Source: Escherichia phage HK6. From it: a DNA stretch of 64,000 nucleotides. A program made the position numbers and the translations under genes. Positions within the stretch are counted from its first letter, which is position 1. Each line of letters opens with the position of its first letter. The DNA lies in the sequence record PP724615.1, one strand, 5' to 3'. The notes beneath the pieces are model-generated. The model had not been told where the DNA came from and did no database searches. It saw only the letters and a program-made list of their open reading frames with translations. Shown piece after piece: positions 1,204 through 47,388 of the stretch.

Positions 1204-1905
1204 TCAAATTTTCATTTTTTCGATCATAGCTGCAACACAATAGCTCTCAACTAAGGCATCGAATGCTGGATCATGTTTAACCGGATAGATCCCATAACGA
1301 ATAGTGTCCATTTTCTCCATTTTAGCGGTTGCCCAGCTAATACCTTCAGCCTCTAGCTCTTTGTAACTATATCCAGCTTGCATCCAGAGATTACGAAGAG
1401 ATCGAACATTGCCCAAATTCCAGAATTTCCACGGAACTACCTCTTCATTGGTTCCAGCATGGAAAGTGTTTGCAGAGTAGATAGTCATATCAAACTCTGG
1501 GCCATTGCCATAATACAAAGCATTATCGCCTAGAGCCAACTCCATAATATTTTGAGCCATAGAGTAGGCAGCATAGTTAGAGCCGAGTTTATTAGTACAA
1601 TGATGTTTACCGTTTTGGAATGCAATCAGCTTTGGATTACGCTCGTTCATAGCTTGCATAATGTGGATAGCAGACGGACTGTCTTTAGCTTGATCCATCC
1701 AGAATGCTAGAGTAGATGCTGTAACTTTGGCACCAGAATTAAGCTGATCCTGCACATCCAAAGTAACAAATACTAGATCAGGGTCTTTATCAATTCCATG
1801 CATAGCCACAAAAGCGAATGAAGGCATTGCGATATGAGTAGTACCACAATCTCCCGGAGTTCCCAGAGATTCAATATCTAGCATACCAAATGGTTTTACT
1901 TTCAT
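1204..1905 (-). CDS. DEDDh (DnaQ-like) 3'-5' exonuclease, 233 aa
   Basis: Exo motifs LDIES (I), NGPEFD (II), HDPAFDA (III, H-x4-D); RBS AAAGGA. Confidence 0.75.
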   Translation of the reverse strand: MKVKPFGMLDIESLGTPGDCGTTHIAMPSFAFVAMHGIDKDPDLVFVTLDVQDQLNSGAKVTASTLAFWMDQAKDSPSAIHIMQAMNERNPKLIAFQNGKHHCTNKLGSNYAAYSMAQNIMELALGDNALYYGNGPEFDMTIYSANTFHAGTNEEVVPWKFWNLGNVRSLRNLWMQAGYSYKELEAEGISWATAKMEKMDTIRYGIYPVKHDPAFDALVESYCVAAMIEKMKI

Positions 1906-2180: not shown

Positions 2181-2206
2181 AATAAGAGGGGCTTTCGCCC
2201 CCTGAT
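2181..2206 (-). terminator. rho-independent terminator (GGGGC-GAAA-GCCCC + T-rich)
   Basis: stem 2188..2201, TCTTATTT follows on minus strand. Confidence 0.6.
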
Positions 2207-2211
2207 TTAAA

Positions 2212-2427
2212 TTACTTGCCCAGCAGTTTAAGGATATTTTCCATAATAGTTTGGGCAGATTTTTCACTCTTGTTGGTTTCAGCCAACTTTAAAGCTAGTT
2301 CTTCCTGCTGTTTCTGAATATCCGCAGCAATTTTTTGATCAGCCTCAATACGAGCTTGAAGCTCATCAGTGATAGTGGTAAAGGAAGCAACGATTTCAGT
2401 AACGGAACGTGGTTTCTTAGAGAACAT
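2212..2427 (-). CDS. hypothetical helical protein, 71 aa
   Basis: ORF with AAGGA RBS; followed by GGGGC/GCCCC terminator. Confidence 0.5.
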   Translation of the reverse strand: MFSKKPRSVTEIVASFTTITDELQARIEADQKIAADIQKQQEELALKLAETNKSEKSAQTIMENILKLLGK

Positions 2428-2466
2428 AAAAAATATCCTTGATTAGTTAGAGAATTAGTAGATTGT

Positions 2467-2482
2467 AGGGGCTTCTGCCCCT
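2467..2482 (-). terminator. GC hairpin AGGGGC/GCCCCT without clear U-tract
   Basis: read directly; weak as terminator. Confidence 0.35.
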
Positions 2483-2491
2483 ATTTATCTA

Positions 2492-3007
2492 TTACTTCGC
2501 TTTACGCTTGCGAGCTGGTTTAGCAGATTTACGGGCAGAATCACCCGTGAACTTAATGCCTACACCGTAACACAGAGCGCGAACGTTATCTTTACTATAC
2601 TCTACGCCAAAGATATTTGGCTTAACAGAACCAAACTGTCCACGAGCATCACGTAGTACGTCTGCCGTTGGTTTACGCTTCTGGTTAACTGCTTTCTCAT
2701 AGTCTTTCATAGCCATGCCATTACGAGAGAACAATTCAGCCCCAGCGTTGAAGCTCAGGGAAACTGGGACAGATTTGTGGCCGTAATTTTCTACATACAT
2801 AACCATTTTGTAGGATTTACGGGTGGCATTTTTAGCTTTAGGCTTCTGACGAATCGGAGCCGGATTATTCAGTGCTTGTGCAGCCTGAGCATCGGTAGGA
2901 TGCTTACGCAGGTGGCGTTCCAGACGAGCTTTGCGATTAGCCTCGGTCTGCGGGAAAGTTTTAACTGCCGGAGCTGCTTGAGTTTTTGCGTTTTTCTGCT
3001 TAGCCAT
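2492..3007 (-). CDS. highly basic hypothetical protein, 171 aa (possible nucleic-acid binder)
   Basis: K/R-rich termini, AAGGAAAA RBS, strong promoter 3046..3074 upstream. Confidence 0.6.
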   Translation of the reverse strand: MAKQKNAKTQAAPAVKTFPQTEANRKARLERHLRKHPTDAQAAQALNNPAPIRQKPKAKNATRKSYKMVMYVENYGHKSVPVSLSFNAGAELFSRNGMAMKDYEKAVNQKRKPTADVLRDARGQFGSVKPNIFGVEYSKDNVRALCYGVGIKFTGDSARKSAKPARKRKAK

Positions 3008-3045
3008 TATTTGTTTTCCTTTTTGTTTATCAATTTATGAAGTAT

Positions 3046-3074
3046 ATTATACGAGAATTTGAAGCGTTTAGCAA
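3046..3074 (-). promoter_or_regulatory. sigma70 early promoter TTGCTA-17-TATAAT (matches my memory of T5 PH207)
   Basis: -35 3069..3074, -10 3046..3051; surrounding AAAAATTCATTTGCTAAACGCTTCAAATTCTCGTATAATATACTTCATAAATTGATAAAC. Confidence 0.85.
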
Positions 3075-3082
3075 ATGAATTT

Positions 3083-3532
3083 TTAATTTATTAACTGTAA
3101 GCTTCTTTTAATTTCAGACCTTACCTGCATCAAAAGAACTCCTAAAGTATTATCCCCGATGCCTCGGCAAACACCCCAATATGTATCTCCCCAGGTATTT
3201 CCTTCGATCAAAGTTGCATTTTTTGTTGCTAACAGTTTGTCCCTCAAATCAGGGATTGCAAACTTTAACCGTAAAAGCTCTAGCATTACATCATCTTTTA
3301 CCTTATCCCAGTCAGAGCGCAGAGTTAATTTACGTCCTCTACGTTTGGCAACACCTGCATTTAGGGAGCGCAGTACATGAGCTACATCATCTTTTTGGTC
3401 GGATTTCATAGCCTGAAAAGCATGTTCTACAGTATCAGCATGCCATATTTCATTCAGATATTCAAAAGTAATTGGTGATAAATAAAAGTTTGATAAGAAA
3501 CTATAAGCACCTTTAAATTCAGTAATCTTCAT
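3083..3532 (-). CDS. NADAR (YbiA/DUF1768) family protein, 149 aa
   Basis: N-terminal YSFLSNFY, EHAFQAMK, WGDTYWG and LG..LMQVR motifs typical of NADAR domains. Confidence 0.75.
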   Translation of the reverse strand: MKITEFKGAYSFLSNFYLSPITFEYLNEIWHADTVEHAFQAMKSDQKDDVAHVLRSLNAGVAKRRGRKLTLRSDWDKVKDDVMLELLRLKFAIPDLRDKLLATKNATLIEGNTWGDTYWGVCRGIGDNTLGVLLMQVRSEIKRSLQLIN

Positions 3533-3813
3533 TTTTTACGCCCCGCATCTTTAGCCTCTTCGGCTGTATAGATATACTGATAAGCCCCTTTGGAGTATGC
3601 TGGAGCAGTACACATTTTCTTACGCTCAATCTCTTCTTGAGCTTTTCTTTCGCGTTCAGCTAATTCTTCGTCCAGATAAACTAAACGTTGTTCTGGAGGG
3701 GGTGGAAGACGTGTTTCTGGCTCACCAATATTAGCCTTTCTTATTTGACGAGGTGATTGTGCGCGTTTTCTCAATGGTTTAAATCCTAATGAATTTGAGT
3801 TATAAATCCGCAT
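3529..3813 (-). CDS. hypothetical protein, 94 aa
   Basis: GAGGAGGG RBS, promoter 3841..3869 upstream, stop overlaps NADAR start. Confidence 0.55.
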   Translation of the reverse strand: MRIYNSNSLGFKPLRKRAQSPRQIRKANIGEPETRLPPPPEQRLVYLDEELAERERKAQEEIERKKMCTAPAYSKGAYQYIYTAEEAKDAGRKK

Positions 3814-3840
3814 AAAGCCCTCCTCACTTTCAATACGAAT

Positions 3841-3869
3841 ATTATACTAAATTAGAGGGCTTTAAGCAA
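3841..3869 (-). promoter_or_regulatory. sigma70 early promoter TTGCTT-17-TATAAT
   Basis: -35 3864..3869, -10 3841..3846. Confidence 0.75.
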
Positions 3870-3890
3870 GAGAATTTTTCAATTTATTTA

Positions 3891-4367
3891 TCACATCTCA
3901 GCCATTTCAGCTTCAGTAATAACTGTATTACATAAGGCATCTACAGCTTCATTACCACTAATACCAGAATGTCCTTTAACCTTAATAAAGGTAGGGTTAG
4001 TATTATGAAAGTTGATATACTGCTGTGTTAATTTAAATGCTTCCTGCCAAAGTTCTAGATTAAGAGGAACTTCACCATCTGCTTTCTTCCAGCCTTTCCT
4101 TTGCCAAGAAAACATCCAACTTTCCATGCCATTTTTGCAATAAGCAGAGTCAGTATAGATAGCAATTGGTCTATTATCTTTTTTAACAGACCAACGTAGA
4201 GCTTCTACGATAGCTGTGAGTTCCATCTCATTATTTGTAGTTTTAGGATTATAACCAGATTTAGAACCTAAACGATCGTAGTTATCATCATAGACAATAA
4301 AACCCCAAGCACCTGGACCTGGGTTAGACTTACAAGCACCATCTGTGTAAATGTGGAAAACCGACAT
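3891..4367 (-). CDS. rnh: RNase H (RNase HI type), 158 aa from ATG 4367
   Basis: YTDGACKSNPGPGAWG, NNEMEL, YTDS, KGHSG..GNE.VD motifs; ATG 4367 overlaps upstream stop (TAATG) and follows GGGAGG; the track start 4379 is a TTG inside the RBS. Confidence 0.85.
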   Translation of the reverse strand: MSVFHIYTDGACKSNPGPGAWGFIVYDDNYDRLGSKSGYNPKTTNNEMELTAIVEALRWSVKKDNRPIAIYTDSAYCKNGMESWMFSWQRKGWKKADGEVPLNLELWQEAFKLTQQYINFHNTNPTFIKVKGHSGISGNEAVDALCNTVITEAEMAEM

Positions 4368-13717: not shown

Positions 13718-13907
13718 GGGTTTAAACGCCGCTTTGGAAAACGCATTAATGCAGCACTGGGAAACTGGCTATAAGGATGGTGTTGAATCCTGCGCTACTA
13801 TGCTAGAAGTTATTGCTAATACCTTAATGGAGAAAGGCAATAAAGAATTAGCTGAGCTATTAGATAGTATTGGGCAAAACTTCAGAGAACAGGTGAAAAA
13901 TGCGTAG
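13686..13907 (+). CDS. hypothetical protein, 73 aa
   Basis: GGAGAA RBS, operon context. Confidence 0.5.
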   Translation: MAFSKPMLPDKGLNAALENALMQHWETGYKDGVESCATMLEVIANTLMEKGNKELAELLDSIGQNFREQVKNA

Positions 13908-14736
13908 ATTAATTATTATTAGTGGTGCAGGTTTGAGTGTTGAAAGTGGTGTACGAGCTTTTCGTACTAATACTGCTAGCGGTAAAGCATTGTGGGATGA
14001 TTATGATCTAGAAGAAGTATGTAATATTCATGCCTTTCGTGGTAATTTTTATCATAAAACCCATATGTTTTACAACAAGCGTCGTGAAGAGCTAAAAACT
14101 GTTGAACCCAATCTTGCGCATTTGCGTATTGGTGAATGGTATAAACAATATCCAGGTCAAGTAGTAAACTTGACTACCAACGTTGATGACCTTATTGAGC
14201 GTGCTGGCGTTTCACATAGTGACATTCTGCACATTCACGGATATTTAAAAGAGGTTGTTGTAGCTGATAGCTACAATAGTAGCAATAAACGGATTATTGA
14301 TGTAGGATACAGTTCTATCGATCCGGATGATTATAAATGGGTTAAACCTAATGTAATCTTCTTTGGAGAGCATGCTCCAGCATATGCAGAAATGTACAAT
14401 GTTTTTGATGGTATTACCAGTCAAGATATGATTGTTGTGGTTGGTTGTTCTAACCAAGTAATTAACTTCTACTGGGAATTATTTCCTGTTCTTAATTTGA
14501 CTGCTGCGAAACTTATGGTTGTTAACTACCATGATAGTGCCCTCGCAGCGGAACCGGGCTATCAAGGTATGACTCGTAGTGAGATGTACCAGCTGGAGGA
14601 ACGCGGTATCCCTTACTGGAGTAAAGGTGCGGTAGATGCTTTCAGTGACCCTGATTTTATTGCTCGTGTAGAAGCTCATTTAGAGGGTAGACCTTATGTG
14701 TTGAGAAGCAAGGGAAACAGATATGTCCATAGTTAA
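13900..14736 (+). CDS. Sir2-family NAD-dependent deacylase / ADP-ribosyltransferase homologue, 278 aa
   Basis: GAGLSVESGVRAFR (NAD pocket), TTNVDDL, catalytic HIHG, PNVIFFGE, VVVGCS motifs. Confidence 0.8.
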   Translation: MRRLIIISGAGLSVESGVRAFRTNTASGKALWDDYDLEEVCNIHAFRGNFYHKTHMFYNKRREELKTVEPNLAHLRIGEWYKQYPGQVVNLTTNVDDLIERAGVSHSDILHIHGYLKEVVVADSYNSSNKRIIDVGYSSIDPDDYKWVKPNVIFFGEHAPAYAEMYNVFDGITSQDMIVVVGCSNQVINFYWELFPVLNLTAAKLMVVNYHDSALAAEPGYQGMTRSEMYQLEERGIPYWSKGAVDAFSDPDFIARVEAHLEGRPYVLRSKGNRYVHS

Positions 14737-14905
14737 ATCTGTATATACACATCCCGATGACATATTTGTATGGGCAGATGGTAGTTGGTGCTATCGATGT
14801 GAGTTATGGGAAATGGACTATAAATCCGATGACTATGGCGTCATATATGTTGATACGGTTGAGTATGATACGTTCTTAGAAAGGAACAAAAATGGAAATA
14901 AGTAA
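14723..14905 (+). CDS. hypothetical protein, 60 aa
   Basis: ORF in operon, overlaps both neighbours by a few codons. Confidence 0.45.
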   Translation: MSIVKSVYTHPDDIFVWADGSWCYRCELWEMDYKSDDYGVIYVDTVEYDTFLERNKNGNK

Positions 14906-15398
14906 TACTCCAATTATTTTTCTAGATATTGATGGGGTGCTCAATTCGAGCATCTCCCACCATCATGCACCTGATAATGAAAAGATTTTCTTTGGAAGTG
15001 ACTGGGTTTTCAAACCGCTTCTCAAGGCTTTTCAGGATTTTATTCGTCCTTCTCCGATAATGATTGTTGGAGTATCCTCATGGTTCTCTGTCAGGAATGA
15101 GATGGAAAACGTTCAGATTATGACCGGATTAGGTCTTATCGATCGTTTTCTTGGTACAACGGATTTTACTGGGGGTGGATTATCTAGGGGTAATTCTGTT
15201 CTTCGCTTCGTTGAAAAGCATAAGCTCAAACATTGGTGTGTGCTTGATGATGCTGGTGCTATGATGTATCAGTATCCAACGGTTATAGTCAACGGTAGGA
15301 CTGGGATAAATCTTCAAGATTTAAAAGCTGTTAGCTATATGCTAGAATTTAGCCCAGATCTTGAAATGTGTAAATCCTTACAACAATTTAAGGTGTAA
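14892..15398 (+). CDS. HAD-superfamily phosphatase-like protein, 168 aa
   Basis: motif I IIFLDIDGVLN and late VLDDAG motif; AAGGAA RBS. Confidence 0.6.
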   Translation: MEISNTPIIFLDIDGVLNSSISHHHAPDNEKIFFGSDWVFKPLLKAFQDFIRPSPIMIVGVSSWFSVRNEMENVQIMTGLGLIDRFLGTTDFTGGGLSRGNSVLRFVEKHKLKHWCVLDDAGAMMYQYPTVIVNGRTGINLQDLKAVSYMLEFSPDLEMCKSLQQFKV

Positions 15399-44538: not shown

Positions 44539-47388
44539 TTAAATAGTAGCCCAACTAACAGATTGCTCACCATTTTCCCCTTCTGCTCTAATCCTAAATC
44601 GTAGTTTACGATTAATTCCTAAAGCACCAGAGTTTAATAGTGCAAAATCCGCCTTATTATATGTTAATAGATAGTCATAAGTATAGGCATCCTCTATCCT
44701 AATACTACGAAGCATTCTATCCTGAGAATCATGTATTTCTAGAGTATAATAAATTTCTGGAATTATTTCTTCCTCAGGTATCTTATCCCAAGCAAGCTTC
44801 ACGTCTGGCCCAACAAATTCAGTTACATCTCCAGAAGCTGTATTAGTTACTCTGAAGTTACTAACTACACTCAAGTTTCTAGCAGAGTTAAGATCCACGG
44901 AAAGAGTAACAGGAGAACTACGTCTACCGTTAATATCAACAGCACGTAATTCAAAAATAGCTAAACCAGCAGGCTCACCTATAATCTCCTGAATCATCCT
45001 TTCATTAGGATTATTCTCTAATTGCTGAATTATGTAAGGATCTACATGACCTGAATGAGCTATAGAATAATATACTACGTTATTAGTAAGACTAGGTAGC
45101 CAAGATAGTTCCCCATTTTTACCTATAGCACCTATCATGCCACCAGGAGTTGGGGTATATTTAAAGTCTCTAGGAGGAAGAACATTATTACTAATATCTG
45201 GAATATCATTGCCGCTATTATCCACTTGATCAGAATTGATGAATACATCTTCACCATACTCTTGTAGTGTTAAATTAATCTTACCATCACGAGTATTTTC
45301 TACTTCATCTACTAAGAAGAACTTGTCTTTCCACCCATAACGCTCGTAAGTAAAAGCAATCGGGTCATTTGGCTCTATACCAATAAACTTATATGGTACT
45401 GAGAAGCTAAGTGTACGTGAGTACCTGGACTTTTTAAGCTCTCTATCAGCGTAACTACGAGCGGTGTAGTAGTTAGTAATATTTGCAAAAGATAGCTGAA
45501 GTTTTTTATCCAAACCCTTATCTTGTTCTTTAAACTTAGAGTTATAGAATGTAATAGAGTTTGTTTTCCAGCTTAGTGCAGGATCTACTAAAGATGCTTG
45601 TACTGAGTTAAACTTATTCCTACCAGTAGTATCAGATAAGTCTAAGTCCCCATAAGTATCTAGAAAACCTATTTTCAAAGGAGTTGTAGAGTGCTTCTCT
45701 ACAGTTATTCTATACTCACCAGATAAGTTATTTATAGCACCACCAAAAGAGTCTAGTACTCCCTGAACGTTTTTAAATACTGATTCGGAGGTGTCTAATA
45801 TAGTGTTTAACTGGACTACTTGGCGGTGTTCAGAAATAGAATCACTCCAACCAATATATCTCCAATAGGGTTGCCAACTAATCTGATAAGACTCATCGAT
45901 TATATCCAGAATTTTTGCTTCTGATATAATTTTTTGTAGTGGAAACTGATCTAGAGTTATATTAGCTCCATAACGTTCAGAGGTTAGATAGTCCATGAGC
46001 TGCCAGATACCGTTAAGGCTAGTTTTATCAGCTTTAACAGACCCATCAGAGCTATATACTTTAACTTTCTTACCTTGTACTTCGGCACTAATTTCTGGAA
46101 TTTCAGTTCTATTCTCGTTAATAGTAAATCTAACTACAGCATAGGCTGTATCTAAGAGCTTATAACGAGAATCCCAGTACTCTGGACCATTGCCATTTTG
46201 ATTCTGTAAATAGAAACCTCTTCTTTTAGCAATATCTACTAGTACTTGAGCTGCTGTCTGGTCGGGTTTGCCATGAAAAGTCCATATTCTTATATCGCCA
46301 TTACCATCATTATACTTGTACTCCTGGCCATGTACAGAGGGTTGAGAAGTACTTGTACCCGCAGCCAATCTATGCATTGTATCGCCCACTAGTTTCTTAC
46401 GACCAAAGCAGGTTCTAGCACTGGAATCCGTTTCATCAAAACAGATCATTGGGCTGTCACCAATATAGAAATCTAGAAATCCGTCAATTTCTCCTTCCGA
46501 AAACGCATAGACTACATACACTATATTAGGGTTATTTAGCTCAGTATCTGCAAAAATAGGGATACCAGGAATTTTCTGAACCCCATATACAACAGGTATG
46601 AATTTAGCAGCTAAGTTAAAGTCTAAATCAACTTCTTTAGTTACAGTCTCATAATACTTTTTAAGACTGTAACTTCTTGATAGCCCAAAAAGTTTCTTCT
46701 TGGACTGAAGTTTATAGCGTTCTTCTTTTACCTGATATTTAGCTAATATAGTGGTACTTTTATTAGAGTGGAAGAATCCATAGTCTTCTTGGTACTCAGG
46801 GCGTTTAGCACCATTTGATGGCTGAAGAGTCCCATTAACAACTTCAAGACCTCGGTGAGAAGCATCATCAGTATAACGACCATTCACTCTATCAAAGTCG
46901 TAGAACTGGTTGGAACAGTTCCACGTTATAACAGAAGTTCCTATACCAGAAGTGTTAACATTATCCTTTATTCCTCCGCCAGTAATTTTACCCCGAAAGA
47001 ATAGTAAAGGTCCATTAGTATCAGGATCCACAGGAAGAATATTACCTTCTTCATCAATTATAGCTTGATGTATAGTGATAGTTCTATCTAAGAAAGATAC
47101 TCCATTTTGAACTAGTTTTAATACTTCATCTTCTGCTGTACCAGTTATGGTAAAAGATAGGCTCCCAATAGATAGTTCACGGTTTTGTTTATGGGAGCCG
47201 ATACTTTTTACTTTACCAGATCTATATAAGATTCCGTTATAAGTAACATCTCTAAAGTAGTCAGTTAAATAAATATAAGTAGCAGCAGAGCCTGATGAAC
47301 TAGGAAGCTCTAAAGCTATAAGACAAGCTGTTTTTAGCTTGTCATGAGTATTAAGATATGTTTTAGCACTATCGAGTATCTGCTTCAT
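44539..47388 (-). CDS. baseplate hub protein, pb3-like, 949 aa
   Basis: same length as T5 pb3, position after distal tail protein. Confidence 0.85.
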   Translation of the reverse strand: MKQILDSAKTYLNTHDKLKTACLIALELPSSSGSAATYIYLTDYFRDVTYNGILYRSGKVKSIGSHKQNRELSIGSLSFTITGTAEDEVLKLVQNGVSFLDRTITIHQAIIDEEGNILPVDPDTNGPLLFFRGKITGGGIKDNVNTSGIGTSVITWNCSNQFYDFDRVNGRYTDDASHRGLEVVNGTLQPSNGAKRPEYQEDYGFFHSNKSTTILAKYQVKEERYKLQSKKKLFGLSRSYSLKKYYETVTKEVDLDFNLAAKFIPVVYGVQKIPGIPIFADTELNNPNIVYVVYAFSEGEIDGFLDFYIGDSPMICFDETDSSARTCFGRKKLVGDTMHRLAAGTSTSQPSVHGQEYKYNDGNGDIRIWTFHGKPDQTAAQVLVDIAKRRGFYLQNQNGNGPEYWDSRYKLLDTAYAVVRFTINENRTEIPEISAEVQGKKVKVYSSDGSVKADKTSLNGIWQLMDYLTSERYGANITLDQFPLQKIISEAKILDIIDESYQISWQPYWRYIGWSDSISEHRQVVQLNTILDTSESVFKNVQGVLDSFGGAINNLSGEYRITVEKHSTTPLKIGFLDTYGDLDLSDTTGRNKFNSVQASLVDPALSWKTNSITFYNSKFKEQDKGLDKKLQLSFANITNYYTARSYADRELKKSRYSRTLSFSVPYKFIGIEPNDPIAFTYERYGWKDKFFLVDEVENTRDGKINLTLQEYGEDVFINSDQVDNSGNDIPDISNNVLPPRDFKYTPTPGGMIGAIGKNGELSWLPSLTNNVVYYSIAHSGHVDPYIIQQLENNPNERMIQEIIGEPAGLAIFELRAVDINGRRSSPVTLSVDLNSARNLSVVSNFRVTNTASGDVTEFVGPDVKLAWDKIPEEEIIPEIYYTLEIHDSQDRMLRSIRIEDAYTYDYLLTYNKADFALLNSGALGINRKLRFRIRAEGENGEQSVSWATI

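Follow-up and report, generated by a model that had tools for sequence, protein, structure and literature searches.

The 64,000-nt stretch of DNA from Escherichia phage HK6 that we analyzed (sequence record PP724615.1; hereafter the window) carries a gene, adfN, whose product appears from its sequence to be an allele of AdfN-Bas32, an anti-DarT1 NADAR protein with a role already published in 2025. We put at roughly 90% the probability of the reading as a whole, namely that adfN specifies the orphan, antitoxin-like NADAR protein AdfN of T5-like phages, which would reverse DarT1-mediated guanine ADP-ribosylation of phage DNA. Family resemblance alone would not have foretold anti-DarT1 activity, because E. 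coli YbiA, which the protein resembles most in sequence and fold, gives cells no relief from DarT1. The assignment is carried by near-identity to proteins of known effect, together with a conserved fold and active site.

To define the gene, we compared the ATG-initiated ORF of 149 aa on the minus strand (Table 1) with profile collections. The protein matched the Pfam NADAR family PF08719 (DUF1768) with 78.9 bits (E 6.9e-22; gathering cut-off 35.1), its residues 9-142 aligning to profile positions 9-163 of 163, and it also matched the phage family phrog_1017 (E 8e-45). Both matches are far above chance, and the ORF is a real gene encoding a clear NADAR domain protein. The window itself is from a T5-like phage (Markadamsvirinae). 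When six-frame ORFs were searched with an HMM built from homologues, one NADAR ORF was found in the window and one in the complete related genome phiP4, and tblastn of phage genomes placed NADAR at one position in the record of phage Bas33; therefore, the assignment to AdfN-Bas32 is unambiguous.

Table 1. Features of the adfN region and of other window loci referred to in the text (window coordinates).
Feature	Position	Strand	Basis or remark
adfN, NADAR-domain predicted ADP-ribosyl-guanine glycohydrolase, allele of AdfN-Bas32	3083..3532	-	Pfam, near-identity, AlphaFold2 model, Foldseek, residue mapping
Gene for 94-aa protein, phrog_4593, T5.090 homologue	3529..3813	-	core Demerecviridae gene, 540 phage records
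Sigma-70-type promoter, TTGCTT-17 nt-TATAAT	3841..3869	-	drives 94-aa gene and adfN; sequence, five-phage invariance, T5 annotation
Next promoter, TTGCTA-17 nt-TATAAT, T5 P-H 207 homologue	3046..3074	-	drives DUF7022 gene; downstream cassette edge
Accessory cassette, approximate extent	3075..3575	-	alignments against T5, Eps7 and T5_ev219
13-bp direct repeats within adfN	3383..3395 and 3287..3299	-	exact, 96 nt apart
DUF7022 gene, T5.089 homologue	2492..3007	-	256 bits; Lys-/Arg-rich; P-H 207-type promoter
233-aa ORF, Rv2179c-like 3'-5' exoribonuclease domain	1204..1905	-	PF16473; phrog_255 exonuclease family
SIR2-family protein gene, T5.102 homologue	13900..14736	+	PF02146, 88 bits
HAD_SAK_2 'Swiss Army Knife RNA repair' HAD-domain protein gene, T5.105 homologue	14892..15398	+	

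Evidence for function comes from comparison with two phages of the BASEL collection, which were identified from the locus tags of their records: IrisVonRoten (MZ501075.1) is Bas32, with NADAR gene bas32_0066, and Escherichia phage HildyBeyeler (MZ501074.1; tags of the form bas33_xxxx) is Bas33, with NADAR gene bas33_0070. The window protein is identical to each at 148 of 149 residues (99.3% for bas32_0066), carrying K104 where Bas32 has E and A9 where Bas33 has T, and neither position is conserved or catalytic. The deposited Bas32 and Bas33 proteins (positions 3642-4091 and 2501-2950, respectively, of the examined pieces) are thus two residues apart (A9T, K104E); the article that describes them calls them identical.

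That article named the Bas32/Bas33 protein AdfN-Bas32, for anti-DarT factor NADAR (Johannesman et al., Nat Commun 2025, PMC11825919). According to its text, plasmid-borne AdfN-Bas32 protected uninfected E. coli from DarT1 toxicity, and ectopic expression brought RB69, T5 and Bas25 back to full titre on DarTG1 hosts; against DarTG2, which modifies thymidine, it was without effect. T5 is reported there to be strongly restricted by DarTG1, and we found that T5 is without the NADAR gene. The evidence given in the article text for AdfN-Bas32 thus comes from ectopic expression with one DarTG1 system. A literature search found no knockout of a native T5-like adfN, and the text of PMC11825919, supplements aside, describes neither such a knockout nor an assay of the purified Bas32 allele; the HIDEN-SEQ preprint covers T4 adfN and adfM, and not T5-like phages. 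The earlier note, made from the DNA alone, had recognised NADAR/YbiA hallmarks in the 149-aa protein and had suggested that it might reverse guanine ADP-ribosylation and so counter DarT-like toxins. The first point is borne out by the PF08719 match and by the active-site residues described below, and the second is supported by near-identity to a protein with published DarT1 neutralisation and phage rescue, although it is not new.

To assess the fold, we built an AlphaFold2 model of the adfN protein with 40 homologues of 47-58% identity (mean pLDDT 97.6, pTM 0.91). A Foldseek search of the PDB (E<=0.001) returned two matches only: 2B3W, E. coli YbiA (TMq 0.82, 37% identity), and 8BAU, the complex of a Phytophthora NADAR with ADP-ribose (PnNADAR:ADPr; TMq 0.78, 26% identity). 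The model has the YbiA-like alpha-helical core fold of the NADAR superfamily and consists of core elements only, in agreement with a Pfam core that begins at residue 9; the protein is a core-only NADAR. At the sequence level it aligns to E. coli YbiA with 37% identity (E 3.5e-15).

The residues of PnNADAR that contact ADP-ribose or act in catalysis are E43, K50, R79, W89, R93, E125, D130 and W133 (Schuller 2023). Aligning 42 sequences with MAFFT matched them, in order, to E36, K43, R67, W75, K79, E110, D116 and W119 of the adfN protein, and all eight are conserved. E36, K43, E110, D116 and W119 are invariant across all 40 homologues. Position 110, which aligns to E125 of both YbiA and PnNADAR, is thus Glu throughout. 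A phmmer pairwise alignment with 8BAU had placed the E/K motif off by three residues and was replaced by the MAFFT alignment.

From family biochemistry it is known that N2 of guanine in DNA is where DarT1 attaches ADP-ribose, and that NADARs hydrolyse the resulting bond. We propose that, upon infection of a DarTG1 host, DarT1 would place ADP-ribose on the guanine N2 amino group of phage DNA and thereby block replication, and that AdfN would bind the ADP-ribose and hydrolyse the ribose-guanine N-glycosidic bond, restoring unmodified DNA and allowing the phage to replicate. On the basis of the residue mapping, K43, R67, W75, K79 and W119 are predicted to hold the diphosphate and the proximal part of ADP-ribose, with E36, E110 and D116 predicted to surround the distal ribose. 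A strong and conserved promoter of the sigma-70 type would drive both adfN and a core gene for a 94-aa protein. AdfN would presumably be made in the early phase of DNA replication, and adfN is likely to be needed in its native phage.

The gene sits in the T5 nucleotide-metabolism and replication block, in which the order is RNR, DHFR, thymidylate synthase, RNase H (rnh), the 94-aa gene, NADAR, the DUF7022 gene and a 3'-5' exonuclease. The DUF7022 gene lies directly downstream of NADAR. Homologues of the exonuclease-family ORF are labelled 'putative metallopeptidase' in the BASEL and Eps7 records. Immediately upstream, the stop codon of the 94-aa ORF overlaps the adfN start by 4 nt (ATGA), making translational coupling possible. 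The 94-aa protein had no match in Pfam or NCBIfam.

Transcription of the pair was assigned to a promoter whose hexamers, on the minus strand, are TTGCTT at 3869..3864 and TATAAT at 3846..3841, separated by a 17-nt spacer. A scan for consensus promoters did not call this element, because its -35 hexamer TTGCTT matches TTGACA at only 3/6 positions. Nonetheless, the promoter is real and conserved, as indicated by direct reading of the sequence, by its invariance in five phages (the window, Bas33, Eps7, T5_ev219 and T5), and by the location of its homologue inside an annotated promoter feature of the T5 record (46337..46411). The next promoter starts 9 nt past the adfN stop codon. A promoter and terminator scan found no terminator-like hairpin between adfN and this promoter; therefore, read-through into the DUF7022 gene is likely. 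The first hairpins downstream of adfN on the same strand are at 2484..2465, which is without a U-tract, and at 2202..2187. Hence the earlier note's proposal of a two-gene unit with its own promoter stands as to the promoter, which is confirmed and invariant, but not as to a self-contained unit: no terminator follows adfN, and the 94-aa gene and adfN probably form a unit that is not insulated. The 94-aa gene, which the earlier note read as co-transcribed with adfN, was rejected as a dedicated functional partner, since it is a core Demerecviridae gene that is found with or without NADAR (540 records versus about 96; see below).

Furthermore, adfN was found to be part of an accessory cassette. 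The 2.1-kb stretch around it is 97-99% identical to many E. coli and Salmonella T5-like phages (441 records match), with 99% identity in slur09 and phiP4. The NADAR gene is absent from T5, Eps7 and T5_ev219, and alignments with these three phages revealed a clean insertion of ~450 bp, located between the core 92/94-aa gene and the promoter called P-H 207 in the T5 record. Near-perfect identity to the NADAR-less phages extends from the upstream promoter through most of the 92/94-aa gene and is lost in its last ~45 nt, where the encoded C-terminus is YSKGAYQYIYTAEEAKDAGRKK instead of YNKGAYQYV..AKMVGR; it returns at AAAAATTCATTTGCTAAACGC, in the -35 region of P-H 207. The whole NADAR ORF thus belongs to the cassette, as do the final ~45 nt of the 94-aa gene, which have diverged. 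It has no compositional anomaly (0.37 GC for the gene, 0.39 for the window).

The distribution of the two genes agrees with these boundaries. Homologues of the 94-aa protein were found in 540 phage records, and all of the NADAR-less phages that were compared (Eps7, T5_ev219 and T5) have one. A version at least 95% identical to that of the window is present in only 96, which is close to the 95 records in which tblastn of phage genomes detected a NADAR at least 95% identical to the window's. This match in numbers is consistent with a cassette that includes the 3' end of the 94-aa gene. By record counts, the cassette is present in about a fifth of the T5-like genomes of the collection.

Several other observations were made on this locus. 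In Salmonella phage vB_SenS_UTK0009 (OQ359889.1, Epseptimavirus; positions 1489-1938 of the examined piece), a NADAR only 60% identical to the window's lies immediately behind rnh, flanking the conserved 92-aa gene on the side opposite to that of adfN and representing a second insertion site and a second allele in the same hotspot; this arrangement suggests independent acquisition or shuffling. Within the window's NADAR gene, the sequence AAAAGATGATGTA occurs as a pair of direct repeats (Table 1). A 117-aa protein from a 109-kb contig, P0002, is the window NADAR minus 32 residues (49-80), deleted in frame and exactly between the repeats. The deletion takes out R67, W75 and K79, and P0002 is probably a natural loss-of-function allele, recalling the truncated adfN of RB69.

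Database labels in this region require caution. Public annotation of the NADAR gene is unreliable ('swarming motility protein YbiA', 'GTP cyclohydrolase II', 'DUF1768'), and the 94-aa gene is labelled 'DksA C4-type domain-containing' despite its single Cys. Small ORFs around adfN (the 2212..3813 locus and its homologues) are labelled 'tail tape measure', 'baseplate wedge' or 'virion structural protein'. Two records of 2-3.5 kb named 'Listeria phage LM 4-14-1' (OR848833.1) and 'LM 4-11-1' (OR847649.1) are 100% identical at the protein level to the T5-like adfN locus and are probably mislabelled or contaminant contigs.

The likeness to YbiA raised the question of whether the gene has a housekeeping role, that is, whether it encodes a YbiA-type N-glycosidase that destroys reactive riboflavin-pathway intermediates (5-phosphoribosylamino-pyrimidines) or related damaged nucleotide metabolites within the nucleotide-metabolism block of the phage, with anti-DarT1 action as a side activity that appears on over-expression. 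YbiA is the best solved-structure match, the Glu at position 110 is of the YbiA type, and genes for RNase H, thymidylate synthase, DHFR and RNR adjoin adfN. The score against the NCBIfam model for the riboflavin-intermediate N-glycosidase, TIGR02464, was 66.5 bits, just under the curated cut-off of 73.7, a value that speaks for kinship and yet fails to reach membership. There are no rib genes nearby. An accessory cassette that is absent from most T5-like phages, T5 included, has the pattern of an anti-defence gene and not of a metabolic one. Finally, the near-identical AdfN-Bas32 gives three phages complete rescue from DarTG1, an effect at odds with genuine YbiA, which leaves DarT1 toxicity unrelieved. 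We consider a housekeeping role very unlikely.

A second question concerned the breadth of the substrate range. AdfN might be a broader eraser whose main targets are other ADP-ribosylating defences or toxins that place ADP-ribose on cytidine or guanosine of DNA or RNA, such as pierisin/ScARP-like ARTs or ARTs yet to be described, with DarT1 as one target of several. [quoted passage not shown] The window protein has the catalytic-type Glu (E110). Moreover, relatives that share 30-60% identity were found in 374 phage records, with hosts from Streptomyces to Vibrio, a range that may exceed that of DarTG1. To our knowledge, there is no phage-defence system that ADP-ribosylates cytidine, which we count against this proposal; in addition, a broad range extends the main explanation rather than excluding it. 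We regard it as possible but doubtful that DarT1 is only one among several main targets.

A related suggestion, which we put forward tentatively, is that the T5-type AdfN, by virtue of its Glu-type active site, may be a dual eraser of guanine and cytidine ADP-ribose on both DNA and RNA. If this is true, the phage would be protected against ADP-ribosylating defences beyond DarTG1, including undiscovered ones, and the two insertion sites and the repeat-mediated deletion allele would reflect ongoing gain and loss of the gene under that selection.

We also considered self-immunity, in which the NADAR would protect against an ADP-ribosyltransferase of the phage itself, for example an ART that modifies host DNA or RNA. 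NADARs do pair with ARTs in published toxin-antitoxin operons (DarT1-NADAR and YarT-YbiA), and the window encodes a SIR2-family protein, for whose homologue T5.102 the T5 record notes 'ADP-ribosylase'. However, the annotation of phiP4, a complete and closely related genome, contains no entry for an ART. NADAR-less T5 carries the SIR2 gene as well, and in the window this gene lies ~10 kb from adfN on the other strand. The actual neighbours of NADAR are RNase H, the 94-aa core gene and DUF7022. Self-immunity is therefore scarcely credible. As an observation in its own right, the SIR2 and HAD_SAK_2 genes make up a second NAD+-linked module in the window, one that is core to T5.

Returning to reversal of DarT1 modification as the preferred function, adfN would decide whether a T5-like phage grows on DarTG1-carrying hosts. 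Its presence or absence would thus matter when therapeutic and biocontrol phages are chosen or engineered, because adfN is present in many T5-like phages of Salmonella and E. coli and missing from many others. The present analysis makes a small addition to what was published: an exact map of the cassette and promoters, the presence and absence of the gene across T5-like phages, a correction of the widespread labels 'swarming motility protein YbiA' and 'GTP cyclohydrolase II', and a tentative prediction of specificity for cytidine ADP-ribose.

Among the known NADAR systems, the DarG1 antitoxins (BC4488 family; E. coli C7, Geobacter lovleyi) share with AdfN the chemistry and the substrate, guanine-N2-ADP-ribose made by DarT1. 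DarG1 neutralises the toxin without binding DarT1, in the manner of a type IV antitoxin. Three features set it apart from the core-only window protein: a DNA-binding beta1-beta2-alpha1 extension at its N-terminus; Asp as the catalytic residue (D171 in E. coli C7), where the window protein carries Glu 110; and a darT1 gene beside its own, whereas adfN is an orphan with no darT gene close by. By annotation, adfN belongs to a lytic phage without a cognate ART gene, as is characteristic of AdfN of the Bas32 type. Membership in three profile families was tested and rejected: NF053876 DS32_2 in NCBIfam (44.9 bits versus a cut-off of 240), PDC-M42C of PADLOC (27.7 bits, E 6.5e-7, reflecting a shared domain only), and TIGR02464, for which the score was below the curated cut-off.

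By sequence and fold, the adfN protein is closest to the YbiA-like core. E. coli YbiA (2B3W) is the closest solved structure, with the same minimal core fold, N-terminal beta-hairpin and Glu at the family-defining position, and it hydrolyses guanosine-ADPr in vitro, although in vivo the genuine E. coli protein gives no protection from DarT1 toxicity. It differs in being chromosomal, in its LexA-controlled operon and in its tie to the clearance of riboflavin intermediates; the window protein is phage-borne, and its 149-aa ORF stands alone among early genes of the phage, with no ribA/ribD fusion or neighbourhood and no LexA operon. The text of PMC11825919 places AdfN-Bas32 nearest to two archaeal NADARs, outside the YbiA group. 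This placement is in minor tension with YbiA as the best solved-structure relative and with the near-threshold TIGR02464 score.

AdfN-T4 (T4 gp30.3) is likewise an orphan, core-only phage NADAR, with E36 and K43 at the same positions as in the window protein. As described in the text of PMC11825919, it takes ADP-ribose off guanine and is active against DarTG1, though not against DarTG2; it fails to neutralise DarT1 outside T-even infection, whereas the Bas32-type protein succeeds; and the two belong to separate NADAR clades, such that BLAST and PSI-BLAST searches from AdfN-T4 miss the Bas32 type. T4-type NADARs have His at the position of PnNADAR E125, in contrast to E110 of the window protein, which thus falls outside the T4 clade. 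Altogether, the closest counterparts of the window protein are the Bas32 and Bas33 alleles of AdfN, which share its length, its locus (rnh, 94-aa gene, NADAR, DUF7022 gene), its promoters and its subfamily, Markadamsvirinae, and differ from it by a single substitution each and nothing more.
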